Positions 25,212-41,736 of a stretch of 64,000 nt of DNA are shown here, in pieces. The number at the start of each line of letters is the position of its first letter. The first letter of the stretch is position 1. The stretch is taken from the NCBI GenBank assembly GCA_012178725.1, contig GCA_012178725.1_3030.1. The stretch is one strand, 5' to 3'. The notes under the pieces were generated by a model. The model made no database searches. It was not told the DNA's origin and saw only the letters and a program-made list of their open reading frames with translations. The position numbers and the translations under genes are program-made. Source of the stretch: a phage.

Positions 25212-25255
25212 AATTATCTCTCACTTGTTAAAAAGATTTTATACTCCGCAGGACC

Positions 25256-25285: not shown

Positions 25286-25785
25286 TAGCTTACACGAACA
25301 TTAATCACTGCGCTGCGAGGAACTACAGAGTACTCTCCAGCATGAACTACGTTCAGAAGTTCAACACCATCTTCAATCCACTGATCAGTTACCCAACCGC
25401 CAATCGGATTCGCGAATGGACGACGAATATAAACTGCCTTACACAACAAATCAGTCGGGTCTTCAATTTTTTCAACTGGTGTTACATACATAGAAACTAA
25501 ATCCATATCAATATGGGATTTTTCTTGTTCTTCTTTTTCAATTTCTGTCAATAAATTGAAATCTTCTTCATAGATGATGAATGATGATACCCTTCCATAA
25601 TAGTTTCTAATTTCCATGTACACTGTACCAATGAGAATTCCGCTATTAACACTAATAACAGTAAAAGGATATCCGCCAGTTGTACCAAGAAGTTCCCAAA
25701 ACTTGCTATCAGTCGTATTCGACATTGTCTGGAAATCAATTTCAGATGGTTTTTTCATTTGATACGTAGTATTAATTTTAATCAT
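25285..25785 (-). CDS. MotB paralog (166 aa)
   Basis: C-terminus GGWVTDQWIEDGVELLNVVHAGEYSVVPRS aligns with the MotB C-terminus YITDQWVEDGVKLYNAVFLGTYKVIPES. Confidence 0.6.
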   Translation of the reverse strand: MIKINTTYQMKKPSEIDFQTMSNTTDSKFWELLGTTGGYPFTVISVNSGILIGTVYMEIRNYYGRVSSFIIYEEDFNLLTEIEKEEQEKSHIDMDLVSMYVTPVEKIEDPTDLLCKAVYIRRPFANPIGGWVTDQWIEDGVELLNVVHAGEYSVVPRSAVINVRVS

Positions 25786-25794
25786 AATTTTCCT

Positions 25795-26307
25795 TTAATC
25801 TAAGGTAATAAAGCCTTTTAATTCGGCATGCGATTTGCGAAACATTACTTGATGCCCACCAATGATAACTTGATCATCTGGCACTTCATAAATCGCAATG
25901 TACATTCCACGATCTTTTAAGTCTTCACGCTCTTCTCGAGTAAACCATCTCATTATATCATATTCACTAGCGAAAGCAAAATGATATAATGCAATAAACC
26001 ACAATGGAATATAATTTTCAATTCGTGAATAATCTTTATTCCATTTAGTTTTAATAGCATCATTAGCATTTTCAACTAATAACTTATCATCGTGCGGAAT
26101 AGGAATACTTTCATGACTTTCATAATTATCGCTATGATGATGAAATGACGATGAATTAATACCGCAAAATTTTAGCCAAGTTCGAGTTTTCATAGAATCA
26201 AATCCACGATAAGGAGTTGATTGAACACATAACTCTTGCCTAATTTTCATTATACCACTATCATCATTTAATGCGCTAAACGATGATTCAACACGATAAA
26301 TTTTCAT
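25795..26307 (-). CDS. Hypothetical protein (170 aa)
   Basis: ORF-track frame trimmed to MKIYRVESSF, which has a GAGGA ribosome-binding site; the longer start lies upstream of the promoter. Confidence 0.55.
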   Translation of the reverse strand: MKIYRVESSFSALNDDSGIMKIRQELCVQSTPYRGFDSMKTRTWLKFCGINSSSFHHHSDNYESHESIPIPHDDKLLVENANDAIKTKWNKDYSRIENYIPLWFIALYHFAFASEYDIMRWFTREEREDLKDRGMYIAIYEVPDDQVIIGGHQVMFRKSHAELKGFITLD

Positions 26308-26334
26308 TTTATTATCCTCAGTAGCTATGGTGTT

Positions 26335-26364
26335 ATAATACCACAACTGACCGAGGAAGTAAAC
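26335..26364 (-). promoter_or_regulatory. Early promoter (GTTTAC-N18-TATTAT) downstream of dexA
   Basis: Reverse strand reads GTTTACttcctcggtcagttgtggTATTAT. Confidence 0.6.
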
Positions 26365-26370
26365 AACTTT

Positions 26371-27054
26371 TTATCGTTTAGTTGGAAGAGATAGAGGATC
26401 GCATTCTTCCTCTGATGGAGCGTCTTCTAGACCCATAGCGTATCGCAAAGCATACTTCATCATCAGGATGTCTTTCGCACAGTCATGAATAGAATCATGT
26501 GCAACGAATCCATCTAAAGTTCCCTTTGGAAGAGGACATGTGGTCATATCACGAACAAGCAGAAGTGCTTCAATTCTGGTACGAATATCACGCTGATTCC
26601 AGAATTTACACGGTTCTAACTTAAATGTGTCAAGCTCATTCTCAGAAACACCATTAAGACGTTGAATATCACGAATGAGATCGACTAAAATTGGAAAATC
26701 AAACGACATTCCACGGCACCAGCCTTGAGATTTCCAAGGATCGATATTATGCGCATTGATGTAATCATTAAATTTTGCAATACCATCGATAGTGCTTACA
26801 TCTTCATCTGATGGTGCAATATTTTTTCTAGCTTCAGGTGATTGATTTTTCCACCATTCGATAGTGCTTTTAGTAAAAAGACGATGTCCTTTTTGGCTTT
26901 TTAAATCAAATTTGATTTTAATGCCGCGTGAAACTAATTCATCAAATGTTTCAACAACTTCCGGGTTAGGGTCAAAAGCAATTACAGCCAAATCAATAAC
27001 AGCTGCTTTTTCACCACTTCCCATCGTTTCAAAATCTATAATAAAATCAAACAT
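26371..27054 (-). CDS. dexA: Exonuclease A DexA
   Basis: 227-aa ORF with DEDD-type exonuclease N-terminus; length as T4 DexA. Confidence 0.9.
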   Translation of the reverse strand: MFDFIIDFETMGSGEKAAVIDLAVIAFDPNPEVVETFDELVSRGIKIKFDLKSQKGHRLFTKSTIEWWKNQSPEARKNIAPSDEDVSTIDGIAKFNDYINAHNIDPWKSQGWCRGMSFDFPILVDLIRDIQRLNGVSENELDTFKLEPCKFWNQRDIRTRIEALLLVRDMTTCPLPKGTLDGFVAHDSIHDCAKDILMMKYALRYAMGLEDAPSEEECDPLSLPTKR

Positions 27055-27311
27055 TAAATTTTCCTTGCTAAATCGCGAATTTGACCTACAGTATAGTCTT
27101 GAATATAAACTTTATTGATAGGCTCATCAATAAATTTTGCCATAGATTCAATGTCTTTTTGTATTTCTTCAAGACTGTATACTATCTTTAAAGCTTTTTC
27201 GCGAATAGTAATATTTTCAGGACCCTGATTTTCTTTAATGACAGCTTTAACATTTGCCATAAGAGATTTAAATTGGTACCAACTTAATTCAATCATTAAT
27301 AATCGCCTCAT
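27054..27311 (-). CDS. Hypothetical protein (85 aa), dexA.1 position
   Basis: ORF overlapping the dexA start. Confidence 0.6.
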   Translation of the reverse strand: MRRLLMIELSWYQFKSLMANVKAVIKENQGPENITIREKALKIVYSLEEIQKDIESMAKFIDEPINKVYIQDYTVGQIRDLARKI

Positions 27312-27549
27312 AAAGATAGCTAATTTCGCCTAAAACATAATCATTAATTGTAACAGTTTTCACTTCACCGCAAAAGAATTCTAACGCAATTAAATCTCGT
27401 TCAATTTCTTCTAATTGAAGCATCAACTTATTAGATTCAATTTTTACAGTTTCACGATTTTTACCATGAGCAATTTCATAAATTTCGCTAATTTTATCCT
27501 GAAGAAAATAAAACTGATCTTTAGTTATTTCCACGAATAGCTTCCTCAA
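27289..27549 (-). CDS. Hypothetical protein (86 aa), dexA.2 position
   Basis: ORF in operon orientation. Confidence 0.55.
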   Translation of the reverse strand: MRKLFVEITKDQFYFLQDKISEIYEIAHGKNRETVKIESNKLMLQLEEIERDLIALEFFCGEVKTVTINDYVLGEISYLYEAIIND

Positions 27550-27588
27550 ATTTAATCAATAATTTACAGACACTTTCATCTAGTGTAA

Positions 27589-27780
27589 TTACCGTATCTG
27601 TATTACTGTGATATGATTGTTTTCAATTCGTTTAATTGCTAATATAGTATCACTTATAAGATAAAGCTTATGAAGGAGCTCAGCTCCTGTTACCATAACA
27701 TTAAGATTATCTTGCTTATTAGTATGCTTCCTTATACCATCTATTAGACGATTTAAATATTTTGAATTGATGTTAATCAT
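27589..27780 (-). CDS. Hypothetical protein (63 aa)
   Basis: Short ORF between dda and dexA.2. Confidence 0.4.
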   Translation of the reverse strand: MININSKYLNRLIDGIRKHTNKQDNLNVMVTGAELLHKLYLISDTILAIKRIENNHITVIQIR

Positions 27781-27786
27781 ATATCC

Positions 27787-29106
27787 TCACACATAAAACA
27801 CATCATAACGACCACGAGTGACACCAACATAAAGAAGCTGCTGAGCTAATTCAGCATCTGCATAATGAATACAAGGCGTATAAATGAAAGCACGGTCTAC
27901 AGACATACCCTGCGCTTTATGGAATGTTGATGCAGGAAGTGCTTTCACTTTACTAAACTGTGATTTAGCATCCCAAAAATCGCTCCACGGAGCTTTTCCG
28001 CCTTTGTTCCAATTTTTATAAGTTTCTGCTGTTTTACCTAAAAATAGGTTAAACTTATACAATTCTTCATCAGATGAAATTATTTTAATCTTTTCACGAT
28101 AATATTCATCATCGCCATAAGTTTCTACTGTTAAATCCCAATGACGAATTAAGTATTCCCCAGAAACACCACGAGCTTTAACAAACGTTGATGTATACTC
28201 TGCTTCTATAATACGAACTAATTGTCCGTTATTAAAAATAATTTCTGACACAGGCTTTCCATCAATTTTATATGTTTTAATTAATGGTTCCTGCATTACA
28301 ATAATTTCACCGACAATAAAATCTTTATCAGTTTCAAAAATCTTTTTACGAATGATGTTATTTAACTTGTCAACAGATTTATTCGTAAATGCCATTACGC
28401 GATTTTCAAACAAATCATCTAGTGATTTTACGATTGAAAAATAATTTACCATAAAATCGCGTAAAGCAGTATCACCAGTAAATCCACGTACTCCATGCCC
28501 GTCAACAACTTTGTCATAAATCCACTTACCGTTGCGAACGTCAGTAGCTACATCAATAATAGGAGCATTACTGCGTTTAACTTCAGTGAGTTCACACTGA
28601 TAAAAATCTTTATGTGTAAAGAATGGACTGATATAAGCAGTATTTTCTCCTGGGTCAACAGGTCTAATTTGCTTATTATCACCTATTCCAATTATAGTAC
28701 ACCACGGCGGGATAGTTGAAAGCAGAATTTTAAATAGCTTTCTATCATACATTGACACTTCATCGCAGATTAATACCCTGCATTTAGCTAAATCTGGTAC
28801 TTCCTTCTGCTCAAAAAGAACGTTTTCTTCATATGTTACTGGGTTAATTTTAAGAATACTATGAATAGTACTTGCTTCTTTCCCTGATAGTTTTGAAAGA
28901 ATCTTTTTAGCTGCATGAGTAGGAGCTGCTAAAATAATACCAGTTTCACCCGTAGATATTAAAGCTTCAATGATGAATTTGGTAAGAGTAGTCTTACCGG
29001 TGCCAGCAGGTCCATTAATAGTTACATGATGTTTCTTTTCTTTAATAGCCTTCATAACAATGTTAAAGGCATTTTTCTGGCCTTCGGTCAAATCATCAAA
29101 TGTCAT
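27787..29106 (-). CDS. dda: DNA helicase Dda
   Basis: 439-aa ORF with Walker A GPAGTGKTT; length as T4 Dda. Confidence 0.95.
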   Translation of the reverse strand: MTFDDLTEGQKNAFNIVMKAIKEKKHHVTINGPAGTGKTTLTKFIIEALISTGETGIILAAPTHAAKKILSKLSGKEASTIHSILKINPVTYEENVLFEQKEVPDLAKCRVLICDEVSMYDRKLFKILLSTIPPWCTIIGIGDNKQIRPVDPGENTAYISPFFTHKDFYQCELTEVKRSNAPIIDVATDVRNGKWIYDKVVDGHGVRGFTGDTALRDFMVNYFSIVKSLDDLFENRVMAFTNKSVDKLNNIIRKKIFETDKDFIVGEIIVMQEPLIKTYKIDGKPVSEIIFNNGQLVRIIEAEYTSTFVKARGVSGEYLIRHWDLTVETYGDDEYYREKIKIISSDEELYKFNLFLGKTAETYKNWNKGGKAPWSDFWDAKSQFSKVKALPASTFHKAQGMSVDRAFIYTPCIHYADAELAQQLLYVGVTRGRYDVFYV

Positions 29107-29414
29107 CGTAAATTCCCTGCAATTGGTATACTAACAATACGCCCAGTATCTAAAATTCGCTGATATAATCTTTGTGTGTCTACGTCAGGCTTAACATGTT
29201 TAACTTCTATTTTATTAAACCAAAACTTACGTGGAGTCTCAACTAATCTTGGAATTCCCTTACCTAAAGCTAGTCGATACTGTTCTTTAAGAGTAGTAAA
29301 TACTTTATCAGCAATCTTCCATTCAAAAAATACAGCAGGACGATGTTCATCAAGCGGAACTGGCGCCGTAAATCCGTCTTTGTCTCGGTAAACTATCGCA
29401 TATACATAAACCAT
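29103..29414 (-). CDS. Hypothetical protein (103 aa), dda.1 position
   Basis: ATGA overlap with dda. Confidence 0.6.
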   Translation of the reverse strand: MVYVYAIVYRDKDGFTAPVPLDEHRPAVFFEWKIADKVFTTLKEQYRLALGKGIPRLVETPRKFWFNKIEVKHVKPDVDTQRLYQRILDTGRIVSIPIAGNLR

Positions 29415-29415
29415 A

Positions 29416-30162
29416 TTATCCTCGGATAAGTTTAAAAATTGAACAATTTAGCGGGTATCCTCTTTTCAGTTTAAGTTTATCAATAAAAGACAAGTTTTGA
29501 TACCGCTCTACACCTTGAATAATTTTATCACACATATCATATTGCATTTCTGCTTCTGACAACTTTTTCACAATTTTCCAATCCGAGCCTTTAAGAAGAA
29601 CGTTCAGTTTAACAACTTCAGCGCCTTCTGCTATGCGAGAACCATCAATACGAGCTTTAAGTGCTATAATCCTTAGCTTAATGTCAGAGGTCTGTTTTGA
29701 TTTAGAAAGCTGAGAAATGTGTTCAATTCGATTTTCACGTTTTTTCTGTATAGCTTTAATTTGATTATAAGTCTTTTTGATTTTAGCCCATTTCTTTTCA
29801 TCTAAATTTAGTTTATGAACTTTTTTCGCAGATGAACGACCAATTCGCAAAGCAAATAAATCCCGTTTTTCAATTAACTCCTCTAAAGTATAATCAGAAC
29901 GAAATGTATTATACTTTTTCTTTACTGCAATAACATTCCCTTTAATGTATCCAACGTTATTATCAAAACGTTCTAATGATAATTTCTCTCCTTCAATACG
30001 ATTATCAAAAGGTTCTCCCGAGTAAGCACAAACTTTTTGATCTAAAATGTTCTTAATGTAATTGAAGTCTAAGTTAAAATCTTTAGAACGTCTTTTTGCA
30101 GATGCCTGAGTATGCTCTAAACGACGTTTAATTTTACGAATTTGGTTATTAGACAGCTTCAT
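29416..30162 (-). CDS. srd: Srd-position protein (248 aa)
   Basis: Basic ORF between dda.1 and modA as in T4; identity by synteny and size only. Confidence 0.6.
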   Translation of the reverse strand: MKLSNNQIRKIKRRLEHTQASAKRRSKDFNLDFNYIKNILDQKVCAYSGEPFDNRIEGEKLSLERFDNNVGYIKGNVIAVKKKYNTFRSDYTLEELIEKRDLFALRIGRSSAKKVHKLNLDEKKWAKIKKTYNQIKAIQKKRENRIEHISQLSKSKQTSDIKLRIIALKARIDGSRIAEGAEVVKLNVLLKGSDWKIVKKLSEAEMQYDMCDKIIQGVERYQNLSFIDKLKLKRGYPLNCSIFKLIRG

Positions 30163-30198
30163 ATTTTTCTCACATCTTACGGACGGTTAACTACTTAT

Positions 30199-30228
30199 AC
30201 TATAACATTTTTACTTCAGCTTGTAAAC
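30199..30228 (-). promoter_or_regulatory. Early promoter (GTTTAC-N18-TATAGT) upstream of srd
   Basis: Reverse strand reads GTTTACaagctgaagtaaaaatgtTATAGT. Confidence 0.55.
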
Positions 30229-30285
30229 AACTTTATGTAAAAATGCTTTAAAAATTTCATGGTATAATGAATCTAAGTCCTTCCA

Positions 30286-30888
30286 TTATAGATTAAATCC
30301 TTCAAAATCAAGAGTATAGATAGTGTATGTTGAATACTTTTTGTACTCATATCTATCTGCAATTCTAAATACACTTCCAGCTGGTATCATTACTTCTTGT
30401 TCATCTGAAACTAATTCCATATTACGATAACGATGGCTATCCGGAAACTTAAAGTTTGGATTGTATTCTTTACAGCGCAGAGCTTTTATAGCATACTCCT
30501 GGAAATTGAATACCATAGGAGCTTTGAATTCAAAAATAACTTGTGTGTTATACTCTAAACCAGAAGCAAAATGTAGAGCTATATTTTTATCATATGAAGC
30601 TGATACGACTTTATCAAATGTAATAATATCAATTCCTTGATTTAACACCTGCTTAGTCTCAGCTGGAACACCTCTCCAAAGAGGTTTATCGTTTGGAACC
30701 AAACGAGATTTGATTATTTCATTTAACCAAGTATGGTCATCTGGCTTATTAGTAATACAATGAATTAAAAGTTCAATTTCAGATAAATTAAACCCTTCAG
30801 AAAGTAATTCTTCACGAATAGAAGCACGCACCGATGCATCCATTGATTTTATTTTAAAATCTTTTAGTTGCATTACTGAGTATTTCAT
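30286..30888 (-). CDS. modA: ADP-ribosyltransferase ModA
   Basis: 200-aa ORF with R-S-E motifs (LWRG, SAS, EQEVMIPAGS); length as T4 ModA. Confidence 0.88.
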   Translation of the reverse strand: MKYSVMQLKDFKIKSMDASVRASIREELLSEGFNLSEIELLIHCITNKPDDHTWLNEIIKSRLVPNDKPLWRGVPAETKQVLNQGIDIITFDKVVSASYDKNIALHFASGLEYNTQVIFEFKAPMVFNFQEYAIKALRCKEYNPNFKFPDSHRYRNMELVSDEQEVMIPAGSVFRIADRYEYKKYSTYTIYTLDFEGFNL

Positions 30889-31508
30889 TCAACTACCTCA
30901 ATATCATAAACTTTAAATGTTCCAAATGAATCGTGTAATTTTTCTTTTGAAATAGAAGTTATTCTATACTTTCCAATTGGAATCATCCATTCTTGTTCAC
31001 GCACAATCATCATTAAGTTATCAGTACGCTCTGAATCTAATCCATCAGTATCTTCATACGTGTACTTAAACTCAGTATTAGGAGAAGAAAGTATAATATC
31101 GCTGATATGGTCAGAATAATTAAAAGCTTTATTAGTTTTTAAGCGAAGTATTATTTTAGTAAAATATTCAGCATAAGAAAAAGAACATGCTGTGAGCAAA
31201 CTAGTAGTAAATGAATCTACTCTATTCGTTGAAAACACTTCTCCAACTTGTAAATCTTTAATAAGTTCTTCTGTTGATTTTGATATACCACGATATAGCT
31301 GATAAGGAGATTTAGTTAAATGCTTTTTAATGATTTTATTCAACTGCCTATGAAGAGCTTCATTCTTTTTGGCTTCCATACATTGCCAAAGAATTGACTG
31401 TTCAAAGTCAGTAAATTTTTCACAGACCTTTTTATACATATCATATTGAAAATCAACGCTTTCAGCTTTTATAGATAACTGTTCAACATCTGCAAGATTA
31501 ATAATCAT
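30885..31508 (-). CDS. modB: ADP-ribosyltransferase ModB
   Basis: 207-aa ORF with LYRG and EQEWMIPIG motifs; ATGA overlap with modA. Confidence 0.88.
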   Translation of the reverse strand: MIINLADVEQLSIKAESVDFQYDMYKKVCEKFTDFEQSILWQCMEAKKNEALHRQLNKIIKKHLTKSPYQLYRGISKSTEELIKDLQVGEVFSTNRVDSFTTSLLTACSFSYAEYFTKIILRLKTNKAFNYSDHISDIILSSPNTEFKYTYEDTDGLDSERTDNLMMIVREQEWMIPIGKYRITSISKEKLHDSFGTFKVYDIEVVE

Positions 31509-31534
31509 GATAGCCTCCGTATACTTCAGAAGCT

Positions 31535-31564
31535 ATCATATCATTGTTAGAAAGGAAAGTAAAC
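31535..31564 (-). promoter_or_regulatory. Early promoter (GTTTAC-N18-TATGAT) upstream of modB
   Basis: Reverse strand reads GTTTACtttcctttctaacaatgaTATGAT. Confidence 0.55.
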
Positions 31565-31575
31565 AACTTTTTGAA

Positions 31576-31758
31576 TTATTTTGCCCAGGGAGCCCAAGGC
31601 GGAGGGTCAAGATGGTATGAAGCTAGTTCTTCTAGAAGAGCATCTGGGGCTTCAATTCCATAATTCTGTAATACTATACGGTACTCTTTCTTATAATCAC
31701 TAGAATCATTCTGGATATTCGTAGAATGATTATCTTCTAACATCTCAAATAAATCCAT
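31576..31758 (-). CDS. Hypothetical protein (60 aa)
   Basis: Short acidic ORF. Confidence 0.45.
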   Translation of the reverse strand: MDLFEMLEDNHSTNIQNDSSDYKKEYRIVLQNYGIEAPDALLEELASYHLDPPPWAPWAK

Positions 31759-31766
31759 ATTAATTC

Positions 31767-32237
31767 CTAGCGATAAAAACCAAAGTGACGATTAGCTTCA
31801 ACAATCTTTCTTTCTTCTTCAGACATTCTCCAGCGTAGTCCAACATCAAAATGAGCCCAGACCATCCTAACAAATGCATTTATATCTTTAATATCTTCAA
31901 TAATGAATGTTTTACTTTTAAAAGGTTGACTCGCTAATTTAACTTTATCGTCTTCAAACATGTCAAAAAGACCATATTCATGAGCTCTTTTATAGCCTTT
32001 AATAGTTAAAGCTTCAGAAGAAGAAAATGGTGAATCTGTATTCTGCAAAATATCTTCAGTATGCTTTATAATTAGAATAACATTTTCTGGATATTTTCTT
32101 TCTTTTATATCTTTAATTAAAATATCCGGATTTTCTGCTAAAGGAATAATTAACGAGCATTTTTTATCAAGTGTATTTACTGATTTACCTTCTTTAGACA
32201 TAAATTCTATTGAATAATGTTTTGCTACTTCAATCAT
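31767..32237 (-). CDS. Hypothetical protein (156 aa), mrh region
   Basis: ORF in operon orientation. Confidence 0.55.
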
Positions 32238-32394
32238 GTGATTTCCTTTTGCCTACTAATGGACCATCAGGAATTTTGTTTTCCTGGATATATTTCTCAT
32301 TTTCTTCCATCATTTTACTGCCAATTTTAAGAAGCAAATCCAAGGCTTCATTTGCTTTAGCCTTTGCCTCTTCTAACGTCATATCTTTGGTCAT
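32230..32394 (-). CDS. Small ORF (54 aa)
   Basis: Hand-called [25 protein letters not shown]...; ATGA overlap with upstream stop. Confidence 0.35.
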
Positions 32395-32594
32395 GATTTA
32401 TCACCATAGATGTCTCTCATCAATTTAAGCGCTGAGCGTTCTAATTTCTTTTCTTTCTCAGCACTAATCATTGATTTCATCCATTCTTCTGACTCGTTCT
32501 GCATTTCTTTATTTGCCTGTTCAACCCAACCATCATCAATATACATTGAGTTTGGTCTATTGAACCATTCAAGAATCTTCTTGAGAGCTTTCAT
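32391..32594 (-). CDS. Hypothetical protein (67 aa)
   Basis: ORF in operon orientation. Confidence 0.5.
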
Positions 32595-33063
32595 TTATTT
32601 TACCTAAAACAATAGTAGGAGCATCGTCAAATTTATGAATTTTTAGCAAATTTGGATTTAACTTATTCCATAAAGAGGTAATAAAATATGATAGCGCACT
32701 TTCGTCCGTAATTATAAATTTATTTCCTTTATCTATTTTCCAATCATATATTGAATCATATGAATAGAAGGATAACGGTTTATTATAATATGCTTCACTA
32801 ACATCAATATAGTTAGATTTAGTAAATGCTTGAATTGCCATAAATGGAGAATTTTGTACAGTTTCAATAATTCCGATCTTTTTAAGTTTTATTTCAACAT
32901 CTTCTGGAATTGGCATTGAAATAAAATCTTCTACTAGATACATATTATTGTCATATCTTTTATCAATCATTACTGCTACGGTAATTGGAACATCCTTAAC
33001 AAACGCCATACTAATACTATTGATAGACATTTCAAACAAAATTGCTTCCATAATTTTCCTCAA
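32569..33063 (-). CDS. Hypothetical protein (164 aa), mrh position
   Basis: Size and position similar to T4 mrh; not verified. Confidence 0.55.
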
Positions 33064-33401
33064 TCACAAGATGTAGATGAACAACTAGAATCACAAGAAC
33101 TTCCACATGAATCGCCCGCCCATACATGAATAGGAACATTAGTATCATATGAATCAGAACTAGACTGTGTTTTCTGTGTGTTAGATGATGTAGTAGGTAC
33201 TGACCAGCGCCAAGGATTTTTATAATATTCTTGGGCTTCTTCATAAGTCATAGTAACTGCTTCTACTGTTCCATCTCCCATATAAACATACTCAACTACA
33301 GTTAAAGGAAGATAGTCATTTGAAATAGGAACTACACCTTCTCCCGGAGTTGTAGAGAAAAAATCTGTAAAGAAATTTTTAAACCAATTAAAGATAAACA
33401 T
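33060..33401 (-). CDS. Hypothetical protein (113 aa) with Cys/Ser-rich C-terminal tail
   Basis: C-terminus [20 protein letters not shown]. Confidence 0.55.
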
Positions 33402-33607
33402 TACAAAAAGCCTCTTTTGAATTCGACTTGCTTCTTACCATAATCATACCGAATCTCTGCATTAAATTCGACAGAACCATCTGCGTACATCATAAATGAA
33501 TGCACAACAACTTCTGTAGACCATGGCTGTAGTTCATATTTCTTCATTACATGCCGTGAAATGATAATATCTAAATCTTCATTTGGTTTAATCCAACGAT
33601 TTAACAT
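33401..33607 (-). CDS. Hypothetical protein (68 aa)
   Basis: First gene after an early promoter. Confidence 0.5.
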   Translation of the reverse strand: MLNRWIKPNEDLDIIISRHVMKKYELQPWSTEVVVHSFMMYADGSVEFNAEIRYDYGKKQVEFKRGFL

Positions 33608-33633
33608 AGCGCTCTCCTCTATAAGATAATTTT

Positions 33634-33663
33634 ATTATACCATACTCATTTTGGAAAGTAAAC
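33634..33663 (-). promoter_or_regulatory. Early promoter (GTTTAC-N18-TATAAT)
   Basis: Reverse strand reads GTTTACtttccaaaatgagtatggTATAAT. Confidence 0.6.
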
Positions 33664-33698
33664 CATTTAAATGAAAAAAGGACTCCCGAAGGAGTCCT
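33664..33698 (-). terminator. Intrinsic terminator after soc
   Basis: aggactcc-UUCG-ggagtcct then TTTTTTCATTT on the - strand. Confidence 0.65.
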
Positions 33699-33703
33699 TA
33701 AAT

Positions 33704-33949
33704 TTATTCACCAGTTACTTTCCACAAATCTTCATTTGCAGCAATCCATTCAGTACGTTGATTTTCTTCATATACTGTAGAATATGCTGCTTTTTCTGAA
33801 GGGAATGTCTGGTAATGTGCACCAGAAATTTTGTGAACGTCAGAATAAAGAGGGAAAGCTACAGAAATTTCCTTTCCTTCAATTTTCTTATTTCCATCTA
33901 ATTTCTGCTCAAATGTTTTGATATTAACATAACCGCGAGTACTAGCCAT
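33704..33949 (-). CDS. soc: Small outer capsid protein Soc
   Basis: 81-aa ORF MASTRGYVNIKTFEQKLDGNKK..., matches T4 Soc. Confidence 0.93.
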   Translation of the reverse strand: MASTRGYVNIKTFEQKLDGNKKIEGKEISVAFPLYSDVHKISGAHYQTFPSEKAAYSTVYEENQRTEWIAANEDLWKVTGE

Positions 33950-33979
33950 GTAATTCTCCTTTTATTTAAATTACATGAT

Positions 33980-33987
33980 TATTTATA
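33980..33987 (-). promoter_or_regulatory. Late promoter (TATAAATA) for soc
   Basis: Exact TATAAATA on the - strand about 30 nt upstream of the soc ATG. Confidence 0.7.
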
Positions 33988-34032
33988 ATAAATTCTCGCG
34001 GCTTTTAAGTCGTCGTTTATTTAAACGAGCTA

Positions 34033-34551
34033 TTAATAGCCTCGGTCTTGACGAGCGAAATTTTCAGCATTTTTCAGATAATAAAGTTTAAATATTTCTT
34101 CAGCTGACATTCCAAGAGCAATAAATTTATTCATGAAAAAGTGAAATTGGTCAATCAGTTCAAATTTAATTTCAAGCTGATCTTCAGGAGATAAGTCTTG
34201 AATTTTCTTGGATTGCATTTCAGAATAACGTTTCTTCCAAGGTTTCCATACGGCAGAAGCTTCTTTTTCACCATTACTCATACCACCAAGAGAAGTATAT
34301 AGCTCGCGAGTTTCATCTGCGATATAATCGTCTTGGTTTCGCAACCAAGCAAGAACTTCTCCTGCAGTTTCAAGTGAATCAGGATGACGATTTGTTTCTG
34401 GTTTATCATTAGCCAAACGAATCTGTAAATGCCGCTGCATATCAAGCATAACCTGCAGTGGGTCAATATTGTGCATAATATTCTCAGCATATGCACGAGT
34501 TGCTTTATCAACACCTTCGATCAAATGAGCGCATTCATTAAAGTGAGCCAT
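34033..34551 (-). CDS. 56: dCTPase/dUTPase gp56
   Basis: ORF-track frame trimmed to MAHFNECAHLIEGVD (172 aa, AGGAAA ribosome-binding site); matches T4 gp56. Confidence 0.9.
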   Translation of the reverse strand: MAHFNECAHLIEGVDKATRAYAENIMHNIDPLQVMLDMQRHLQIRLANDKPETNRHPDSLETAGEVLAWLRNQDDYIADETRELYTSLGGMSNGEKEASAVWKPWKKRYSEMQSKKIQDLSPEDQLEIKFELIDQFHFFMNKFIALGMSAEEIFKLYYLKNAENFARQDRGY

Positions 34552-34622
34552 TATTTTTCCTTTCAATTCATGGGTTAGTAGATTAATTATACAATAAATA
34601 TATAAAGCAATAAGGAGGACAT

Positions 34623-34823
34623 ATGGTACAAAAATTAATGGCACTTGTTAATGCCATAAAAGGTAATAAAAAACGTATAGCTTTTACTATTTCTGCTATG
34701 GTAGGAATTTTACTCTGGAACTTTATTCTATCACCTGTTGCAATTGCACATGGTATTAATATTCCAGTAGTTACTCTTGATACATTTGTAGATTTAGCAT
34801 TTGCTTTAGTTGGGTTGATTTAA
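34623..34823 (+). CDS. Small membrane protein (66 aa), divergent orientation
   Basis: AAGGAGG ribosome-binding site 5 nt before ATG; two hydrophobic segments; stop overlaps the gene 61 stop (TTAA). Confidence 0.55.
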   Translation: MVQKLMALVNAIKGNKKRIAFTISAMVGILLWNFILSPVAIAHGINIPVVTLDTFVDLAFALVGLI

Positions 34824-35848
34824 ATCTTAGCATATTTAGATAGCCGCATTTTAGCCATCAACCCCTGGGCAATATTATTTTTCATATATTCCATAATTTG
34901 TTCAGGGGTTGCACCTTCCTTTCTAATCATATCATTAACATCTTTTGATTTCCAGGGAGATTTATCCCAAAACATAACCCTTTCTCCTGCATCAACTAAT
35001 TTAGTCATTCGCTTAATAGTGTCAGGATGACGAGGTTCATTATCTAAAACCCACACTCGTCTATCTTTAAATGGAACAACTTCTAGGTCTAATTGACCAC
35101 CCGTAATAGCTATACCATTTTCAATAAAAAGTGAATCTATAGGTCCTTCTAGAACATATACATCACCATCTTTAACTCGTTCGACTCCATAGATTTTTGT
35201 TGCTTCAGGATAAGCTTTGATGGTGATATATTTTTGGGGAGCATCTTTCTTTAATGCACGTCCTTGAAAAGACTCAGCTTTTCCATTAGCATTATAAATT
35301 GGAATAACAAGACGAGGCTCAGGTATTTCCTTTTTATATGTTCCCGGTGCTATACTATTAACTAATTTAGGCCATTCGGTTGTAAACCAAAGATATTTCC
35401 ATTTATCCTTTGGAATACAACGAGCTTTTACATATTTTATAATTGGATGGTCTTCCGCCAATTTATCTAATCTAACACATGACAGAAGAGATTTAATTAT
35501 TTTCTTCTCAGGTTGTTTAGGAAGTTCTTTAGGTTTTTCTACTGGACGACTTTTACCTTTTTCTTTTCTTATTTCAAAGATATACTCACGATATAAATCG
35601 GGTTCAAACTCCTTTAAATATATTCCGATTGGCGCATGATAGTTACAGTTATAACAATGAATATTTCCTTCATTATTATCGCCATAATACCATCCACGAG
35701 CTTTATTCTGGTCGGTTTTTGAATCTCCACAAACAGGGCATCTAAACCGTAATTTAAAAGTTGAACTATTATTTACTTGTGTGAATTTAGGTAAATGAGC
35801 TAATGCACGGTATGCAAACTCATTATCAATCCAAGGTATTGATGACAT
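34820..35848 (-). CDS. 61: DNA primase gp61
   Basis: 342-aa ORF with zinc ribbon (CPVC...CYNC) and Toprim region; length as T4 gp61. Confidence 0.95.
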   Translation of the reverse strand: MSSIPWIDNEFAYRALAHLPKFTQVNNSSTFKLRFRCPVCGDSKTDQNKARGWYYGDNNEGNIHCYNCNYHAPIGIYLKEFEPDLYREYIFEIRKEKGKSRPVEKPKELPKQPEKKIIKSLLSCVRLDKLAEDHPIIKYVKARCIPKDKWKYLWFTTEWPKLVNSIAPGTYKKEIPEPRLVIPIYNANGKAESFQGRALKKDAPQKYITIKAYPEATKIYGVERVKDGDVYVLEGPIDSLFIENGIAITGGQLDLEVVPFKDRRVWVLDNEPRHPDTIKRMTKLVDAGERVMFWDKSPWKSKDVNDMIRKEGATPEQIMEYMKNNIAQGLMAKMRLSKYAKI

Positions 35849-35850
35849 TT

Positions 35851-36015
35851 TTACTCTTCTTTTTCTTTAGATTCCTCTTTTTTCTTTTTAGGAATCTGTT
35901 CAGGACCTTTATTTACTACAGCGCCTGATGTTGTTCCAGTAGAGATATTTTCAGGATTACCACCTGAATCTCCAGCGACCATATCTTCTTTGATAAATTC
36001 TTTATATGTTTTCAT
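35851..36015 (-). CDS. Small ORF (54 aa), 61.1 position
   Basis: Hand-called MKTYKEFIKEDMVAGDSGGNPENIS...; start inside a 49-bp repeat. Confidence 0.4.
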   Translation of the reverse strand: MKTYKEFIKEDMVAGDSGGNPENISTGTTSGAVVNKGPEQIPKKKKEESKEKEE

Positions 36016-36061
36016 ATTAACCTCTATTCATAAAAGCATTAAAAATTTGGTCATCAATAGA
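36013..36061 (-). repeat. Direct repeat copy 1 (49 bp): gene tail, stop and next ATG
   Basis: catattaaCctctattcataaaagcattaaaaatttggtcatcaataga; 48/49 identical to 36371-36419. Confidence 0.85.
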
Positions 36062-36373
36062 TGGTGCAGTAATATTTTCTGCATCATTTAGCAAATCATT
36101 AATTTCATCAAATAGCATAACACATGTACCTTTATTTCCTGTAATTGTTACTGCGCAATTACGAACGTTTTCTTTATTAAATTTTAGGTTAATATTTTCG
36201 TAATGAAAATCCTTTAATGCTGAATATATTTTTAAAATAAAATTGTCTTTTACTACAATAAACCCAACCTCACTATTAAAACGTGGTTCATGGAAACTGT
36301 AATAAACCTTTTCATCTATAAAATCGTATGAAATTTTTTCCATTTTTAAATATGAAAATTCAGAACTATACAT
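36017..36373 (-). CDS. Hypothetical protein (118 aa), paralog A
   Basis: Ends SIDDQIFNAFMNRG, the same tail as the neighbouring 208-aa protein. Confidence 0.55.
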   Translation of the reverse strand: MYSSEFSYLKMEKISYDFIDEKVYYSFHEPRFNSEVGFIVVKDNFILKIYSALKDFHYENINLKFNKENVRNCAVTITGNKGTCVMLFDEINDLLNDAENITAPSIDDQIFNAFMNRG

Positions 36374-36419
36374 ATTAATCTCTATTCATAAAAGCATTAA
36401 AAATTTGGTCATCAATAGA
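36371..36419 (-). repeat. Direct repeat copy 2 (49 bp)
   Basis: See copy 1. Confidence 0.85.
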
Positions 36420-37001
36420 AACATTTACTTTAGACTGTTTTTCAGATGGCAATTCATATCCACATATTACAATTTTATGATCAATATCAAAATACACAGA
36501 AGCAATATGATTAATGATATTTTCAGTGAAGTCTAAATCGACATCAATATCTTTTTGACCAAAGCCCAAAGGATAAATAATGCGAGTAATTCGATTATCT
36601 TTAACAAAGATTCCACCGACATACTCTGTACTGCGTTTAAAGTCTACACGCCGACGAAATGAAAAATATTCAGGCTCTTTATGAGCTCGGCTCATAGGAC
36701 ACAACGAATAACTAGAATAAGAGATGTCAAATCCTACGCCTTCGATATGAGCCAAAGTGTCATGATTAAACCAATTATAATCGTACGCCAAATCCATTAG
36801 ATTATAATATGTAAAAGGCACCGGATTAACATCATTAGTCACAAGCATGTAATTAGCAACTGCTATAATTTCATTGTTTTTAACGAATACAAACCGTGAT
36901 TGATGCGAATGACCTGGACCCGCGTTTTCACGATTAATGATATAACACTGGGCACCTTTATATTTGTATGTATCTTTGCACTTGTGCATTTGATAGAGCA
37001 T
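36375..37001 (-). CDS. Hypothetical protein (208 aa), paralog B
   Basis: Ends SIDDQIFNAFMNRD; 61.2 position. Confidence 0.6.
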   Translation of the reverse strand: MLYQMHKCKDTYKYKGAQCYIINRENAGPGHSHQSRFVFVKNNEIIAVANYMLVTNDVNPVPFTYYNLMDLAYDYNWFNHDTLAHIEGVGFDISYSSYSLCPMSRAHKEPEYFSFRRRVDFKRSTEYVGGIFVKDNRITRIIYPLGFGQKDIDVDLDFTENIINHIASVYFDIDHKIVICGYELPSEKQSKVNVSIDDQIFNAFMNRD

Positions 37002-37294
37002 TATTCACCTACCACTTCAGCGATGATATTTTTGTTATTAAAGTTTTTATCGCAATACAGAACATAATTATACTGCATTACACCACCAGACTTAAGCTGT
37101 TTTTGCACTTCAGCTTTCATTTCAGGACGATCGCGCTTAACGATATTCATAATATCTGCTTCAATTTGAGTTTCAACCTCAGTCTGATCAGCAGTCATAG
37201 ACCATTCGCACAAATCTTTATCATAACCTGCCATAGCAGGCTGAGCAGCACAAGAAGCTAAAGCAAAAATTGTAGCAAAAATAAATTTTTTCAT
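37001..37294 (-). CDS. sp: Spackle periplasmic protein
   Basis: 97-aa ORF with signal peptide MKKFIFATIFALASCAAQPAMA; size and position as T4 sp. Confidence 0.85.
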   Translation of the reverse strand: MKKFIFATIFALASCAAQPAMAGYDKDLCEWSMTADQTEVETQIEADIMNIVKRDRPEMKAEVQKQLKSGGVMQYNYVLYCDKNFNNKNIIAEVVGE

Positions 37295-37322
37295 GATAAT
37301 CTCCTCAGTAGTTTATGTTTAT

Positions 37323-37352
37323 ATAGTATCTCAATTTCCAACAAAAGTAAAC
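37323..37352 (-). promoter_or_regulatory. Early promoter (GTTTAC-N18-TACTAT) upstream of sp
   Basis: Reverse strand reads GTTTACttttgttggaaattgagaTACTAT. Confidence 0.55.
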
Positions 37353-37354
37353 AG

Positions 37355-37654
37355 CTATTTTAAAACTTCTGCGTAATCACATGTTACAAACTGTTTCTCT
37401 AGCTTAACGATCTTACGAAAGTATCTTTTACATTGACGAATCTGTCGCTTAGTAGGGCGCACAGCAAACTTAATAAATTCCACTCGACCAAATGGAGGGC
37501 TTTCTTCTGATGGAATATCTAACACCAATTCCCACGTATCTGCAATAAGTGCTTTGAATTGCGTATTTTTCCTGACGTTATACGGAGTAGGTTTAAATAA
37601 AACAATATGCATATTATCCTCGGCAATCCACTTCACATACTTTCTTGTCATCAA
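37355..37654 (-). CDS. Hypothetical protein (99 aa), 61.4 position
   Basis: Basic ORF. Confidence 0.55.
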   Translation of the reverse strand: MMTRKYVKWIAEDNMHIVLFKPTPYNVRKNTQFKALIADTWELVLDIPSEESPPFGRVEFIKFAVRPTKRQIRQCKRYFRKIVKLEKQFVTCDYAEVLK

Positions 37655-37796
37655 TGAAAGCTTTAACTAATGCTTTATTAACTTCAGCATACTGAGTAGT
37701 AGCCCATTGAACGTCATCTTTCATCATTGTGATTTCTTTAGTAAACATGCTTTCATTCTTAAACCATCCCATAAAAACTACCTTTACCAATTCCAT
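37614..37796 (-). CDS. dmd: Dmd-position 60-aa protein (antitoxin against RnlA/LsoA)
   Basis: 60-aa ORF immediately downstream of gene 41, as T4 dmd; identity by synteny and size. Confidence 0.7.
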   Translation of the reverse strand: MELVKVVFMGWFKNESMFTKEITMMKDDVQWATTQYAEVNKALVKAFIDDKKVCEVDCRG

Positions 37797-37825
37797 AACA
37801 ATCTCCTCATTTAACCAACAAGACT

Positions 37826-37855
37826 ACTATACCATAGTCTCGTCAGCTTGTAAAC
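37826..37855 (-). promoter_or_regulatory. Early promoter (GTTTAC-N18-TATAGT) upstream of dmd
   Basis: Reverse strand reads GTTTACaagctgacgagactatggTATAGT; the -35 overlaps the gene 41 stop. Confidence 0.55.
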
Positions 37856-39282
37856 TAAAATTTTAATTCATTCGCCAAAGCATCTAACTGAGCTCGAGTG
37901 GATTCATTTCTTTGATAGCGATTCTGCTCAGCCTGAATCTGTTGTGAACCTGCTACTTCGTTCACTTCAGTTGGAGTAGAATCTTGTTCAATTTCTACCC
38001 ATTTCTGATTTCCCTTTTGAACACCCATCAAAAACTTATTCCACTTATTCTTATCGCCATATCGTGATTTGATTTGCTTAATGAGTTGTTGTTCAGCAGC
38101 TGCTAGCTCCTCGGTTTCAATGACCGCAAGCATAAAATCGGCTGTTGCTGGAAGACCGGCAGATTCTGCAATATCGCTCATGTTAACATCAGAAGAGTCC
38201 CAAGCTTGTTTACCGACCTGTGCTGCAGTCCAAAGAACAGTTTCGGTTTCAACAGCCAGAGCACGCAATTCCTCTGCAATAGCTTTAACAGTTGTGTAAC
38301 TATTTTCTGAATAAACTCGGATGCGACAAGATTTACAAATACCCAGATAATCTACAATAATGATTGTTGGAACAAAATTCTTCTTGAGCTTCAATTCATT
38401 CAAGAGAGACCTGAATGTATTAGCGTCTGCTCCACCAGTAGGATACTGTTTAACGATTAAACGACCAAGAGTAGATTTCTCACGCCATTTTTCCATTTTT
38501 CCTTTATACTCAGCGTAAGAAATATGCCCATCATCAATGTCATCAAGAGAAACATCAAGCATATTAGCATCAATACGCTTAGCACAGACTTCTTCTGCCA
38601 TTTCCATGGAAATGTAAAGAACATTATGTCCGAGCTGCAAATAATCTGCTGCCAATGAACACAGACCTAATGACTTACCAACGTTAACGCCAGCCATTAA
38701 AACGTTCAGTGTTCCAGTCTCAGCTCCGCCTTTAGTAATTTTATTTAGAATTCTGAGTTTAAATGGAACTTTACGAGCTTTATTCATATAAGATAGCCAG
38801 CGTGCTTCGTAGTCATCCATCCAATCATGACCAACGTAGCTATCAAATGAAATTGATAATGCTTGGCGCATGATGTCAGGAATAGCACCAACATCCGGCA
38901 TTTTCTTATTTCGTTTTTCCGGAGGAAGCTCAGCATTAGTTTGAATTTCGATTATTTTAGACGTAGCATTAAACATCGCCCTTTGCTGAACATATTTTTC
39001 TGTTTCTTTTACTAACCAGCTGTGGTCTTCTGGAGAATCAGCCAGTTTTGAAATAAGTGTTTTTACACCAGAATATTCTGTTTCAGTAAATGAACTATTT
39101 TCTAATGCAACATTTAACGCATTAATAGATGGAACGCTATGGTACTCATTAACATGAGATTTAATTAATTTGAATGTATTTTTAGCTGGACCACTTTCAA
39201 AATATTCTGAATCCATATATGGCCAAACTTTTGAAAAATAAGCTTGATCAAATATAAGATGAGAAAGAATAATTTCTACCAC
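37855..39282 (-). CDS. 41: Replicative DNA helicase gp41
   Basis: 475-aa ORF, DnaB-like; length as T4 gp41. Confidence 0.95.
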   Translation of the reverse strand: MVEIILSHLIFDQAYFSKVWPYMDSEYFESGPAKNTFKLIKSHVNEYHSVPSINALNVALENSSFTETEYSGVKTLISKLADSPEDHSWLVKETEKYVQQRAMFNATSKIIEIQTNAELPPEKRNKKMPDVGAIPDIMRQALSISFDSYVGHDWMDDYEARWLSYMNKARKVPFKLRILNKITKGGAETGTLNVLMAGVNVGKSLGLCSLAADYLQLGHNVLYISMEMAEEVCAKRIDANMLDVSLDDIDDGHISYAEYKGKMEKWREKSTLGRLIVKQYPTGGADANTFRSLLNELKLKKNFVPTIIIVDYLGICKSCRIRVYSENSYTTVKAIAEELRALAVETETVLWTAAQVGKQAWDSSDVNMSDIAESAGLPATADFMLAVIETEELAAAEQQLIKQIKSRYGDKNKWNKFLMGVQKGNQKWVEIEQDSTPTEVNEVAGSQQIQAEQNRYQRNESTRAQLDALANELKF

Positions 39283-39291
39283 ACTTACTCC

Positions 39292-39654
39292 TTAAAAGAA
39301 TTTAAATTTTTTCTTTGACCTTTTATTAAATGCATCTTGCAGTTGCATTGTAATACATTTTTCTACATGAGGAGCTAACTCAGCTTTTCTTTCTTGGTCA
39401 AGAACAGCAAAGTCCATTACGACTTTTCCATCAACCCAATCTAATTTTGTCACATACACAATGTGTGTAGAACCATCTTCTAGTTTAATGACAATCTCCT
39501 GGATAACATTTTCCATGGCAGATTTAATTATCTTAAGAGATTCATTAAAAAGACGTTCTTTTCTTTCTTCTTCCCCCTCCGAAGAGGGGGATTCATCGAT
39601 AATTTCTAGATCTAAATCTAAATCATCTTTATTCATTAAATTCTTCCATATCAC
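39292..39654 (-). CDS. 40: gp40-position protein
   Basis: 120-aa ORF between uvsX and 41; contains an in-frame UUCG hairpin (ccccctccgaagaggggg). Confidence 0.6.
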   Translation of the reverse strand: MIWKNLMNKDDLDLDLEIIDESPSSEGEEERKERLFNESLKIIKSAMENVIQEIVIKLEDGSTHIVYVTKLDWVDGKVVMDFAVLDQERKAELAPHVEKCITMQLQDAFNKRSKKKFKFF

Positions 39655-40810
39655 TTAACTGTTCGAGGTCAGTTTCTAAATCAGCAGCTGATTTACTTTT
39701 ACTTTCTGGAGATTTAAATTTTTCAACCTTTGAGTTAATCAATTCATCAACTTCAGCTTCAACAATTTCATTACTATCAATAGCACCTAACTGATAAGCA
39801 CGTTTAATAGCATCTCGGAATGGTTGATGCTTAAATAAAGGACCCCAGAATGTAGTGCAGTTGGTATCTTTTGCACGCCAAGATTTTTCTTCGCGAATCA
39901 TCTCGCCGGTTTCTTCGTCAAGAAATTCACGAGCATACCAACCATTCTTAGGTTTTACTACAAATCCTAATTCTAGAGCCATATCTAACAATCCAGAATA
40001 AGGATCGATACCACCGTCAAATTTAACATCAATAAAGAATTTACTTTTTTCTTTAACGGTACGAGATTTTTCTACATTTAGAACAAATTGATACCCTTGA
40101 AGATCAGAACCATCTTTAATCTGACGCTTACCGATAATGAATACGGTATCAGCCGAATACATTACGCCTGTACCACCTGTCATCACGGTTTTACTAAACA
40201 TTTCAATTGTTTCAATTGTATGGTTAACCGCAACACATGGAATATTTTTAATGCTAAAGTAAGGAGTAACAATACGGAATAATGACTTCAGTGATTTAGC
40301 ACGAGTCATATCTGCCACAGATTTTTCATTCAAGGCATCTTCCGTTTCTTTCTTAGAAGCCATATTACCAATTGAGTCGATGAATACTATAACCTTTTCA
40401 CCACGCTCAATAGCTTCAAGCTGATTCACCATATCAATTTTCAGCTGTTCAACTGATTGAATTGGCGTATGAATTACACGTTCCGGGTCAACTCCCATGG
40501 ATCGCAAATAAGCTGGAGTAATACCAAATTCGCTATCATAGAATAGACAAACTGCGTCAGGATATTTGTTCAAATATGCCGCAACCATAGTCAAAGACAT
40601 ATTTGATTTAAAGTGTTTAGAAGGCCCTGCGAAAATAGTTAAACCAGACTGCATACCGCCATCAATCGCACCAGAAATAGCAATATTAAGCATTGGGATT
40701 TTTGTACGGATTACATCCTTTTCATTAAAGAATTTAGATGTAGTCAGTTCAGCAGTCATTTTAGAAGTGGAAGCTTTAATCAAACGGGATTTTAAATCTG
40801 CAATAGACAT
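39629..40810 (-). CDS. uvsX: Recombinase UvsX (RecA-like)
   Basis: 393-aa ORF with Walker A GPSKHFKS; matches T4 UvsX. Confidence 0.95.
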   Translation of the reverse strand: MSIADLKSRLIKASTSKMTAELTTSKFFNEKDVIRTKIPMLNIAISGAIDGGMQSGLTIFAGPSKHFKSNMSLTMVAAYLNKYPDAVCLFYDSEFGITPAYLRSMGVDPERVIHTPIQSVEQLKIDMVNQLEAIERGEKVIVFIDSIGNMASKKETEDALNEKSVADMTRAKSLKSLFRIVTPYFSIKNIPCVAVNHTIETIEMFSKTVMTGGTGVMYSADTVFIIGKRQIKDGSDLQGYQFVLNVEKSRTVKEKSKFFIDVKFDGGIDPYSGLLDMALELGFVVKPKNGWYAREFLDEETGEMIREEKSWRAKDTNCTTFWGPLFKHQPFRDAIKRAYQLGAIDSNEIVEAEVDELINSKVEKFKSPESKSKSAADLETDLEQLSDMEEFNE

Positions 40811-40887
40811 TCATTTTTTCCATAGGCATCATTATATTTTCCTCACTGGTTAAAGATAGAGTAATTATAACACAATAAATTTAGGCA

Positions 40888-41736
40888 TTAATCAACTGCT
40901 ATTGGATGAATAGCATTAAACTTATGAAATGCTTCTGATTTTTCTTTACGAGAAACACACATGCGAAGAACCTTTAATGGCTCGTCTTCTTCACCCAACG
41001 ATTTTCGTTTTTCAATATTAGAAGTTTTCCAACGAGCTTGCTCTGGAAACTCTCTATTGATTTGCTCAAGCGCTCTATTATGTTTAGAATTACTACGAAT
41101 TGAACTGCACCCGCCAGGAGCTTGTGCTTTTCCAGATACAACCAGATATTTGAACAAGGCCAAATGCGGATAACCTTGATTAATTAAATTGAGAAATGCA
41201 TACATATCTTCGCATAAATCAATTTTTCCATACCCAATTTGTTCTGTCGTAAGTTTTCCGAGATCATACCATGTATTCGTGAATCCATATGAATTTTCAC
41301 GATAATTACCCCAAGATGAAGTAATTTTAAAAATAGGTAGACGAGCATGGCCATGATAATACCCACAATCCATGGCATCCTCAACATATTGAATCAATTC
41401 ATAGAACTGTTCACGAGTCAATTGATTGACTTTATCCACACAACGACGATCATCTCTTTTTCGCATTGAACTCATACGAATAGTAGTATCATCGTCAATC
41501 ATCCAGATTCGTTGACCTGCATACATATCAGTAATTGCTTTACGAGTACCAGCAATTCCATTTACATCATCAGGAATAGTTATAATTTTAGCTCTAGACC
41601 CATAGGCATCATAATAAGCTTTTTCTTCGTGTTCACGCACTACAATATGGGGTTCATAATCAGTCGGAAACATATCAAGGGCAGAAACTGCCCCAACACG
41701 CTGATAACTTGGAATTACGAATTGAATCATTTCCAC
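40888..41736 (-). CDS. Glycosyltransferase at the beta-gt locus (not T4 beta-gt)
   Basis: 282-aa ORF with DxD-like motif (WMIDDDTT); T4 beta-gt is 351 aa and unrelated in sequence. Confidence 0.6.
   Translation of the reverse strand: MEMIQFVIPSYQRVGAVSALDMFPTDYEPHIVVREHEEKAYYDAYGSRAKIITIPDDVNGIAGTRKAITDMYAGQRIWMIDDDTTIRMSSMRKRDDRRCVDKVNQLTREQFYELIQYVEDAMDCGYYHGHARLPIFKITSSWGNYRENSYGFTNTWYDLGKLTTEQIGYGKIDLCEDMYAFLNLINQGYPHLALFKYLVVSGKAQAPGGCSSIRSNSKHNRALEQINREFPEQARWKTSNIEKRKSLGEEDEPLKVLRMCVSRKEKSEAFHKFNAIHPIAVD

Follow-up and report, generated by a model that had tools for sequence, protein, structure and literature searches.

Homing endonuclease genes (HEGs) are distributed unevenly among the T-even phages, and published reviews treat T4 as the outlier, with 15 HEGs against one in T2. 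The genome-wide totals compiled by Petrov et al. (PMC2993671, Table 5) are 15 for T4, one for T2 (entered as "other HNH"), 11 for T6, two for RB14 and none for RB26. When T2 is crossed with T4, genes 56 and 32 of T2 are locally excluded through the T4 enzymes SegF and SegG (PMC2330249). The uneven distribution, the outlier status of T4 and the exclusion of T2-type markers were thus already known, having been established between 2002 and 2010.

The stretch of phage DNA analysed here (64,000 nucleotides, hereafter the window) is a Tequatrovirus segment whose genes span tail-fibre gene 34, rIIB/rIIA, the early replication genes and nrdC. It was compared by blastn with the annotated T4 genome (NC_000866) and with the first 50 kb of T2 (AP018813), and the first 50 kb of T6 (NC_054907) were likewise fetched and compared. 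The window is colinear with the early region of both T2 (94–98% identity) and T6, and a megablast search with positions 25000–45000 against a phage collection returned 375 records with at least 80% query coverage, the top matches of this 20-kb query being Tequatroviruses at ~95–97% identity, with Yersinia phage fPS-65 and T6 among them. The genome falls in the T2/T6 allele class. The best explanation of the window as a whole, to which we assign a probability of about 0.9, is a T-even phage (Tequatrovirus) with a T2/T6-type arrangement in its early and DNA-metabolism region, that is, a T2/T6-type backbone without the six HEG insertions of T4; nothing that contradicts this was found in the anatomy of the window.

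Differences from the individual relatives accompany this overall likeness. T2 has dam and one further ORF (T2 15203–16619), which the window lacks, and is without motB.1/motB.2 and 61.2, unlike the window. T6 is dam-less like the window and, again like it, has a beta-alpha-glucosyltransferase gene and neither segA nor mobB, but it carries an extra HEG at nrdG/nrdD (40432–41166) where the window has none. T4 and T2 have the DNA adenine methyltransferase gene dam between genes 56 and 61; the corresponding window interval, 34549–34819, does not contain it. A 118-aa ORF (36017–36373) aligns with Pfam AdfA (anti-DarT factor A; 2.3e-7) over the C-terminal half of that family; it is directly adjacent to a full-length 61.2 homologue (36375–37001) and looks like a partial paralogue of it. 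In T2 the short AdfA-half ORF is present and 61.2 is not. The gp38 encoded at 9026–9805 is a T2/T6-type tail-fibre adhesin (Pfam GP38, 5e-83) and not a T4-type assembly chaperone, and gene 37 is also unrelated to T4 in its distal half.

The six T4 insertion sites

All six HEGs that T4 carries in the homologous interval, namely mobA, segF, segA, mobB, mobC and I-TevII, are missing from the window, and the breakpoints of the blastn alignment with T4 coincide exactly with these six insertions, while the genes that flank every insertion site are the same in both phages. The original prediction had listed the soc–56, uvsX–glucosyltransferase, alpha-gt–55, gene 39 and nrdD positions as free of T4 elements; the absence of mobC (T4 42917–43517 not in the window) is an addition to that list. 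The features concerned are the following:

33950–34032, minus strand: soc–56 intergenic gap; 45 bp (window 33988–34032) stand in place of T4 15611–16269 (segF)
40811–40887, minus strand: gap of 77 bp between the glucosyltransferase gene and uvsX, without segA (ORF coordinates, blastn)
40888–41736, minus strand: beta-glucosyl-HMC-alpha-glucosyltransferase of T2/T6 type, 282 aa (phrog_842, 2.2e-89; Pfam TAGT, 1.2e-9)
55201–55266, minus strand: a-gt.2/a-gt gap of 66 bp, without mobB (a-gt at 53998–55200, a-gt.2 at 55267–55440)
20994–22814, minus strand: topoisomerase II large-subunit gene 39, with T4 genes 39 and 60 fused (ATPase, transducer and Toprim domains)
59993–60013, minus strand: nrdD/nrdG junction, a 4-nt overlap without mobC or segH (nrdG at 59543–60013; blastn)
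61289–61292, minus strand: position of the T4 group I intron with I-TevII in nrdD, intron-less here (blastn against T4; Rfam)

The 83-bp interval between soc (33704–33949, minus strand) and the stop codon of gene 56 at 34033 lacks segF, as had been proposed, and no segF-type ORF (GIY-YIG, ~224 aa, overlapping the end of gene 56) was found in any frame by tblastn or HMM search. Between uvsX (39629–40810, minus strand) and the glucosyltransferase gene (40888–41736, minus strand), the gap was likewise confirmed as 77 bp long and without segA; the same 77-bp gap is found in T2 and T6, with identical sequence in T2. Here T4 23556–25496 (segA and beta-gt) is replaced by window 40799–41744, and the uvsX site carries a different glucosyltransferase cassette, not simply T4 minus the HEG. 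The claim that the alpha-gt to 55 interval has no mobB also stood, the a-gt/a-gt.2 gap being only 66 bp, as in T2, with 24 nt in place of T4 37818–38678 (mobB). This gap keeps the hairpin and the MotA-box middle promoter (55242–55250) found upstream of mobB in T4; in the window these elements (55242–55266) lie directly upstream of a-gt and would serve it directly.

Gene 39 is intact, in agreement with the first description, as a single ORF of 606 aa. It is without mobA, 60.1 and the 50-nt bypass, T4 2794–3910 (gene 60 bypass, 60.1, mobA and the 5' end of 39) being replaced by 64 nt (21330–21393), and 215 of 221 nt around the site of the mobA cassette match T2. The nrdD gene proved intron-less as stated: it is an uninterrupted ORF of 605 aa (60010–61827) from which T4 44815–45849 (the intron with I-TevII) is absent, I-TevII had no tblastn match in the window, and an Rfam search of the whole 64 kb at gathering thresholds gave no matches, hence no group I intron. 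At the nrdD junction 118 of 120 nt match T2, which shares with the window the nrdG/nrdD overlap, the intron-less nrdD and the intact gene 39. The unoccupied positions are short regulatory spacers that keep the promoters and ribosome-binding sites of downstream genes, or they carry other cargo.

The description of the backbone as HEG-poor is correct relative to T4 and does not hold as an unusual trait, T4 being the outlier and the state of the window a common one. Among ~520 related records, at least 80% of the T4 element was present in 41 for the mobA cassette, 50 for segF, 26 for segA, 26 for mobB, 32 for mobC and 25 for the nrdD intron. The counts take in partial records, several T4 isolates and duplicates between RefSeq and GenBank, and megablast, by which they were made, misses strongly diverged HEG alleles. 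For relatives of T4, absence of HEGs at the T4 sites is normal and has been documented before; the phenomenon is textbook T-even biology with little importance beyond correct annotation. Three modest points are added here: the soc–56 spacer is a deletion scar, mobC is also missing, and the way in which the one HNH cassette is inserted has been worked out. The record of this single HEG and its mode of insertion is of use for crosses or engineering at these loci.

The soc–56 spacer and the question of lost endonucleases

In T2, two small ORFs of 69 and 64 aa, here named soc.1 and soc.2, lie between 56 and soc, soc.2 starting at the gene 56 stop codon and soc.1 being the next ORF; the pair is not intact in the window. 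T2 and T6 keep soc.1/soc.2. The features of the window at this locus are:

33704–33949, minus strand: soc (small outer capsid protein), 81 aa (ORF coordinates, blastn, T2 alignment)
33946–33978, minus strand: RNA hairpin with an 11-bp stem, predicted to sequester the soc Shine-Dalgarno AAGGAG (33956–33961) and AUG (33947–33949)
33966–34000, minus strand: remnant of the soc.1 3' end, 35 nt, holding the soc late promoter (T2 alignment)
34001–34032, minus strand: remnant of the soc.2 5' end, 32 nt, with the start ATG changed to ATA at 34030–34032 (T2 alignment)
34033–34548, minus strand: gene 56 (dCTPase), T2-type allele (blastn, protein comparison with T2)

Window 27787–34001 matches T2 8033–14258 and window 34000–34611 matches T2 14588–15202, with T2 14259–14587 missing. 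Read from this alignment, the 83-bp gap is a scar left by the loss of 329 bp from the T2-type ORF pair and not a never-occupied spacer. The T4-type late promoter of soc, TATAAATA, is found at 33980–33987 within the soc.1 remnant, and the 106-nt stretch 33940–34045, which contains the soc hairpin, has a predicted fold of -22.3 kcal/mol (z = -2.9). In T4, a hairpin masks the ribosome-binding site of soc, and the gene is translated from late transcripts alone, whose start lies within the hairpin (PMC2988022). The spacer is what the soc.1/soc.2 deletion left behind and keeps both the late promoter and the hairpin that masks the ribosome-binding site in early transcripts. A scan for sigma-70 promoters in the gap region found five against a shuffled mean of 6.5, that is, no excess.

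The soc/56 locus occurs as three main alleles in the database, where ~520 records hold the region. Matches to the soc.1/soc.2 allele occur in 259 records (178 with query coverage of 80% or more), segF is found in 50, and the exact empty deletion junction is present in 45, including RB3, RB5–RB10, CM8 and SH7. The junction of RB3 is identical to that of the window (100% over 75 bp), whereas other parts of the genomes of RB3, RB5–RB10, CM8 and SH7 differ from the window, in a mosaic fashion; RB3 is reported to have eight HEGs genome-wide (PMC2993671, Table 5). The soc–56 spacer is shown by these 45 records as a recurrent deletion allele and not as a pristine site.

A deletion scar at one of the T4 sites raises the alternative that the sites are empty through loss, the HEGs having once been present and the backbone having reached the end of a cycle of invasion, decay and loss, so that it would be "cleaned" and not never invaded. 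Deletions demonstrably occur at the soc–56 locus, and a 2-bp frameshift in the HNH gene between 46 and 46.1 of T2 shows that HEGs decay in this lineage. However, the scar derives from soc.1/soc.2 and not from segF, and tblastn with E values up to 10 detected no fragment of a HEG at the six positions. Because gene 39 is one uninterrupted ORF, loss there would have required a precise removal of mobA and the bypass together with restoration of the 64 nt that the cassette replaces in T4, which is improbable; T2 and T6, moreover, share the junctions of the window exactly. Gene 56 is also the T2 allele, whereas homing of segF co-converts the T4 gene 56. Its start is the ATG that gives 34033–34548 and not an upstream GTG; the protein is 100% identical to that of T2, and the DNA is 95% identical to T2 and 73% to T4, the T4-type allele that is co-inherited with segF not being present in the window. 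We consider such a history of loss very unlikely for the window as a whole. For the soc–56 gap in particular, loss of segF was rejected on the soc.1/soc.2 origin of the remnants and the T2 allele of gene 56.

A single Mob-like HNH gene at the start of gene 46

The search for further HEGs combined tblastn of all 15 T4 HEG proteins (E up to 10) with hmmsearch of the six-frame stop-to-stop translations, using profiles built from nine T4 GIY-YIG domains and five Mob HNH domains, and with motif regular expressions. Over the whole window, tblastn gave one significant locus only, 51504–52358; the Mob HNH profile matched this ORF as its sole hit in six frames, and the GIY-YIG profile found nothing better than E = 1.3. 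Matches to the GIY-YIG regular expression at 3840–4007 (plus strand) and inside rIIA (18551–20740) were rejected as chance occurrences without profile support.

ORFs of at least 40 aa without a T4 homologue were listed, and the plausible ones were scanned against Pfam, most of them also against PHROGs. They comprise the T2-type gp38 adhesin, DUF7200, DUF7205 and DUF7279 proteins, the AdfA C-terminal-half paralogue and members of PHROG families of unknown function. GIY-YIG or HNH domains in ORFs labelled hypothetical, which would have contradicted the original prediction, were not found by profiles, tblastn or Pfam/PHROGs.

HEGs of novel families could still be concealed among the small hypothetical ORFs, in which case the backbone would not truly be HEG-poor. 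Window-specific ORFs with no assigned function exist at 23146–23517, 27589–27780, 43273–43524, 58898–59209 and 63415–63803, and the real HEG at 51504–52358 itself escapes the Pfam HNH models, so that profile searches can miss such genes. Yet these ORFs encode only 58–123 aa, too little for a nuclease and a DNA-binding domain, and the window-specific ORFs scanned against PHROGs match families of unknown function or non-endonuclease families; the two ORFs at 63415–63803, covered by the Pfam scan only, match no nuclease family, and the remaining ORFs have T4 homologues, none of which is one of the 15 catalogued T4 HEGs. Concealed HEGs are on this evidence extremely improbable.

The original prediction named an HNH gene at 46/47 as the only endonuclease of the window. 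It is the sole HEG found in six-frame searches, but its position is between 46.1 and 46, within the 5' end of the latter; and gp46/47, gp49 endonuclease VII and DenB are also encoded in the window, none of them a homing enzyme. The gp49 gene (61824–62297) specifies a His-Me-finger nuclease, but a resolvase and not a homing enzyme. The HNH gene and its flanking repeats are:

51504–52358, minus strand: intact Mob-like HNH ORF, 284 aa, sole HEG found in the window (tblastn, PHROGs, T4 Mob profile)
52341–52358, minus strand: left copy of an 18-bp imperfect direct repeat, the native gene 46 GTG and first six codons, now the start of the HEG ORF
51471–51488, minus strand: right copy, 14/18 identical, a cassette-supplied surrogate ATG and first six codons for gene 46

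The predicted protein is 30% identical to T4 MobD over 243 aa (tblastn 6e-16, blastp 2e-18), matches phrog_655 "homing endonuclease" (7.8e-45) and the T4 Mob HNH profile (1.5e-8), and contains a motif, HHVLPK...NLVNL...HFKAH, that aligns with the HH...N...H of T4 MobA–E. Searches of Pfam, including its HNH models, NCBIfam and PDB sequences gave no match, so that the Mob-like classification rests on PHROGs, T4 Mob homology and the motif. Three marks of the Mob-like HNH class, namely the HNH motif, full-length Mob homology and sporadic presence at one locus among near-identical genomes, are displayed by this ORF.

An 18-bp imperfect direct repeat of the gene 46 5' end flanks the insert. The 18 nt of the left copy do not differ from T4 and keep their coupling to the 46.1 stop codon; at the other end, the stop codon of the HNH ORF is followed by a 15-nt spacer and then by the new gene 46 start, ATG AAA TCA TTT AAA CTT. 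The Mob-like HNH cassette is inserted six codons into gene 46, where it takes over the native start and supplies a replacement. Gene 46, an essential recombination nuclease gene, carries the insert in its coding sequence, and the surrogate start appears to resemble the replacement coding sequence of the MobA cassette. As a separate observation, the first seven codons of T4 mobC (MNYDRIY) are those of the downstream nrdG (T4 42890–42940 and 43510–43560; window 59985–60040), a similarity of start regions that resembles that at the gene 46 cassette.

Of 518 records with the same flanks, 72 have the HNH gene, among them T6, RB51, RB68 and PP01, often with the annotation "homing endonuclease". In T6 the HNH "homing endonuclease" at 46/46.1 is intact, has 284 aa and is 99% identical to that of the window, whereas in T2 (AP018813, 32898–33750) the gene has a 2-bp deletion that shifts the frame; it is annotated there as two ORFs and is an apparent pseudogene in that assembly. 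The gene of the window is probably the single "other HNH" HEG that Table 5 of PMC2993671 records for T2, T6 and RB51. T4 is without the cassette, and its gene 46 start region is therefore a likely target of the enzyme.

Expected behaviour in mixed infection with T4

Work on T4 places the cut sites of its free-standing HEGs next to the empty positions. The T2 gene 56 is a SegF target (PMC2330249), and the exclusion of this gene by SegF is also reported in PMC2988022, whose Table 1 gives SegA cleavage in uvsX and enters the targets of mobB and mobC as not known; a passage of a preprint citing Bonocora 2011 states that MobA nicks the uninterrupted gene 39 of T2 (bioRxiv 10.1101/2022.08.31.505936). 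The suggestion that the empty sites are themselves targets in mixed infection therefore needs a correction of place: a recipient role can be inferred from the T2 x T4 work, but free-standing HEGs have their cut sites in a neighbouring conserved gene (56, uvsX, 39) and not in the empty gap.

In T2 x T4 localized marker exclusion, T2-type alleles such as those of the window are the documented recipients. Because the window has these alleles and such crosses are published, vulnerability to the T4 endonucleases, and with it a role of this phage as recipient in mixed infection with T4, is a reasonable inference. The T4 enzymes would then cut or nick the T2-type alleles of 56, 39, nrdD and uvsX, and recombinational repair would copy in the T4 HEGs together with flanking markers; the HNH cassette could act in the reverse direction, at gene 46 of T4.

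A further, tentative proposal, rather doubtful taken as a whole, is that an active, so far uncharacterised homing element may be present in the 46/46.1 HNH cassette, one that invades gene 46 by means of a surrogate start and, separately, that the soc–56 deletion allele may alter the efficiency of SegF-driven conversion. If the former were true, the cassette would convert T4-type gene 46 alleles and produce marker exclusion opposite to the T4-over-T2 bias. The deletion allele might affect SegF conversion because it leaves a shorter non-homologous stretch beside gene 56.

The expectation that T4 would convert the alleles of the window could fail if these were immune, that is, if polymorphisms in the target sites prevented conversion by the T4 endonucleases. 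The DNA of gene 56 is only 95% identical to T2, which leaves room for a change in the cleavage site, and six substitutions separate exon 2 of nrdD from T4 at +8 to +20. GIY-YIG and HNH homing enzymes, however, have long recognition sites and tolerate many substitutions. The close identity to T2 of the nrdD junction and of gp56 also speaks against immunity, and at gene 56 T4 strongly excludes the markers of T2 (PMC2330249). Immune alleles are accordingly judged unlikely, and a T2-type recipient remains the preferred reading.

The polymorphism in nrdD is confined largely to one side of the intron position. In window 61250–61290, the exon-2 side, the six differences from the T4 exon fall within the short tract given above, while the exon-1 side differs at one of 60 nt. 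I-TevII presumably cuts in the exon-2 stretch that holds the six differences, and because they fall where we take the enzyme to cut, nrdD might be a poorer I-TevII substrate. Throughout this exon-2 stretch the window is identical to T2.
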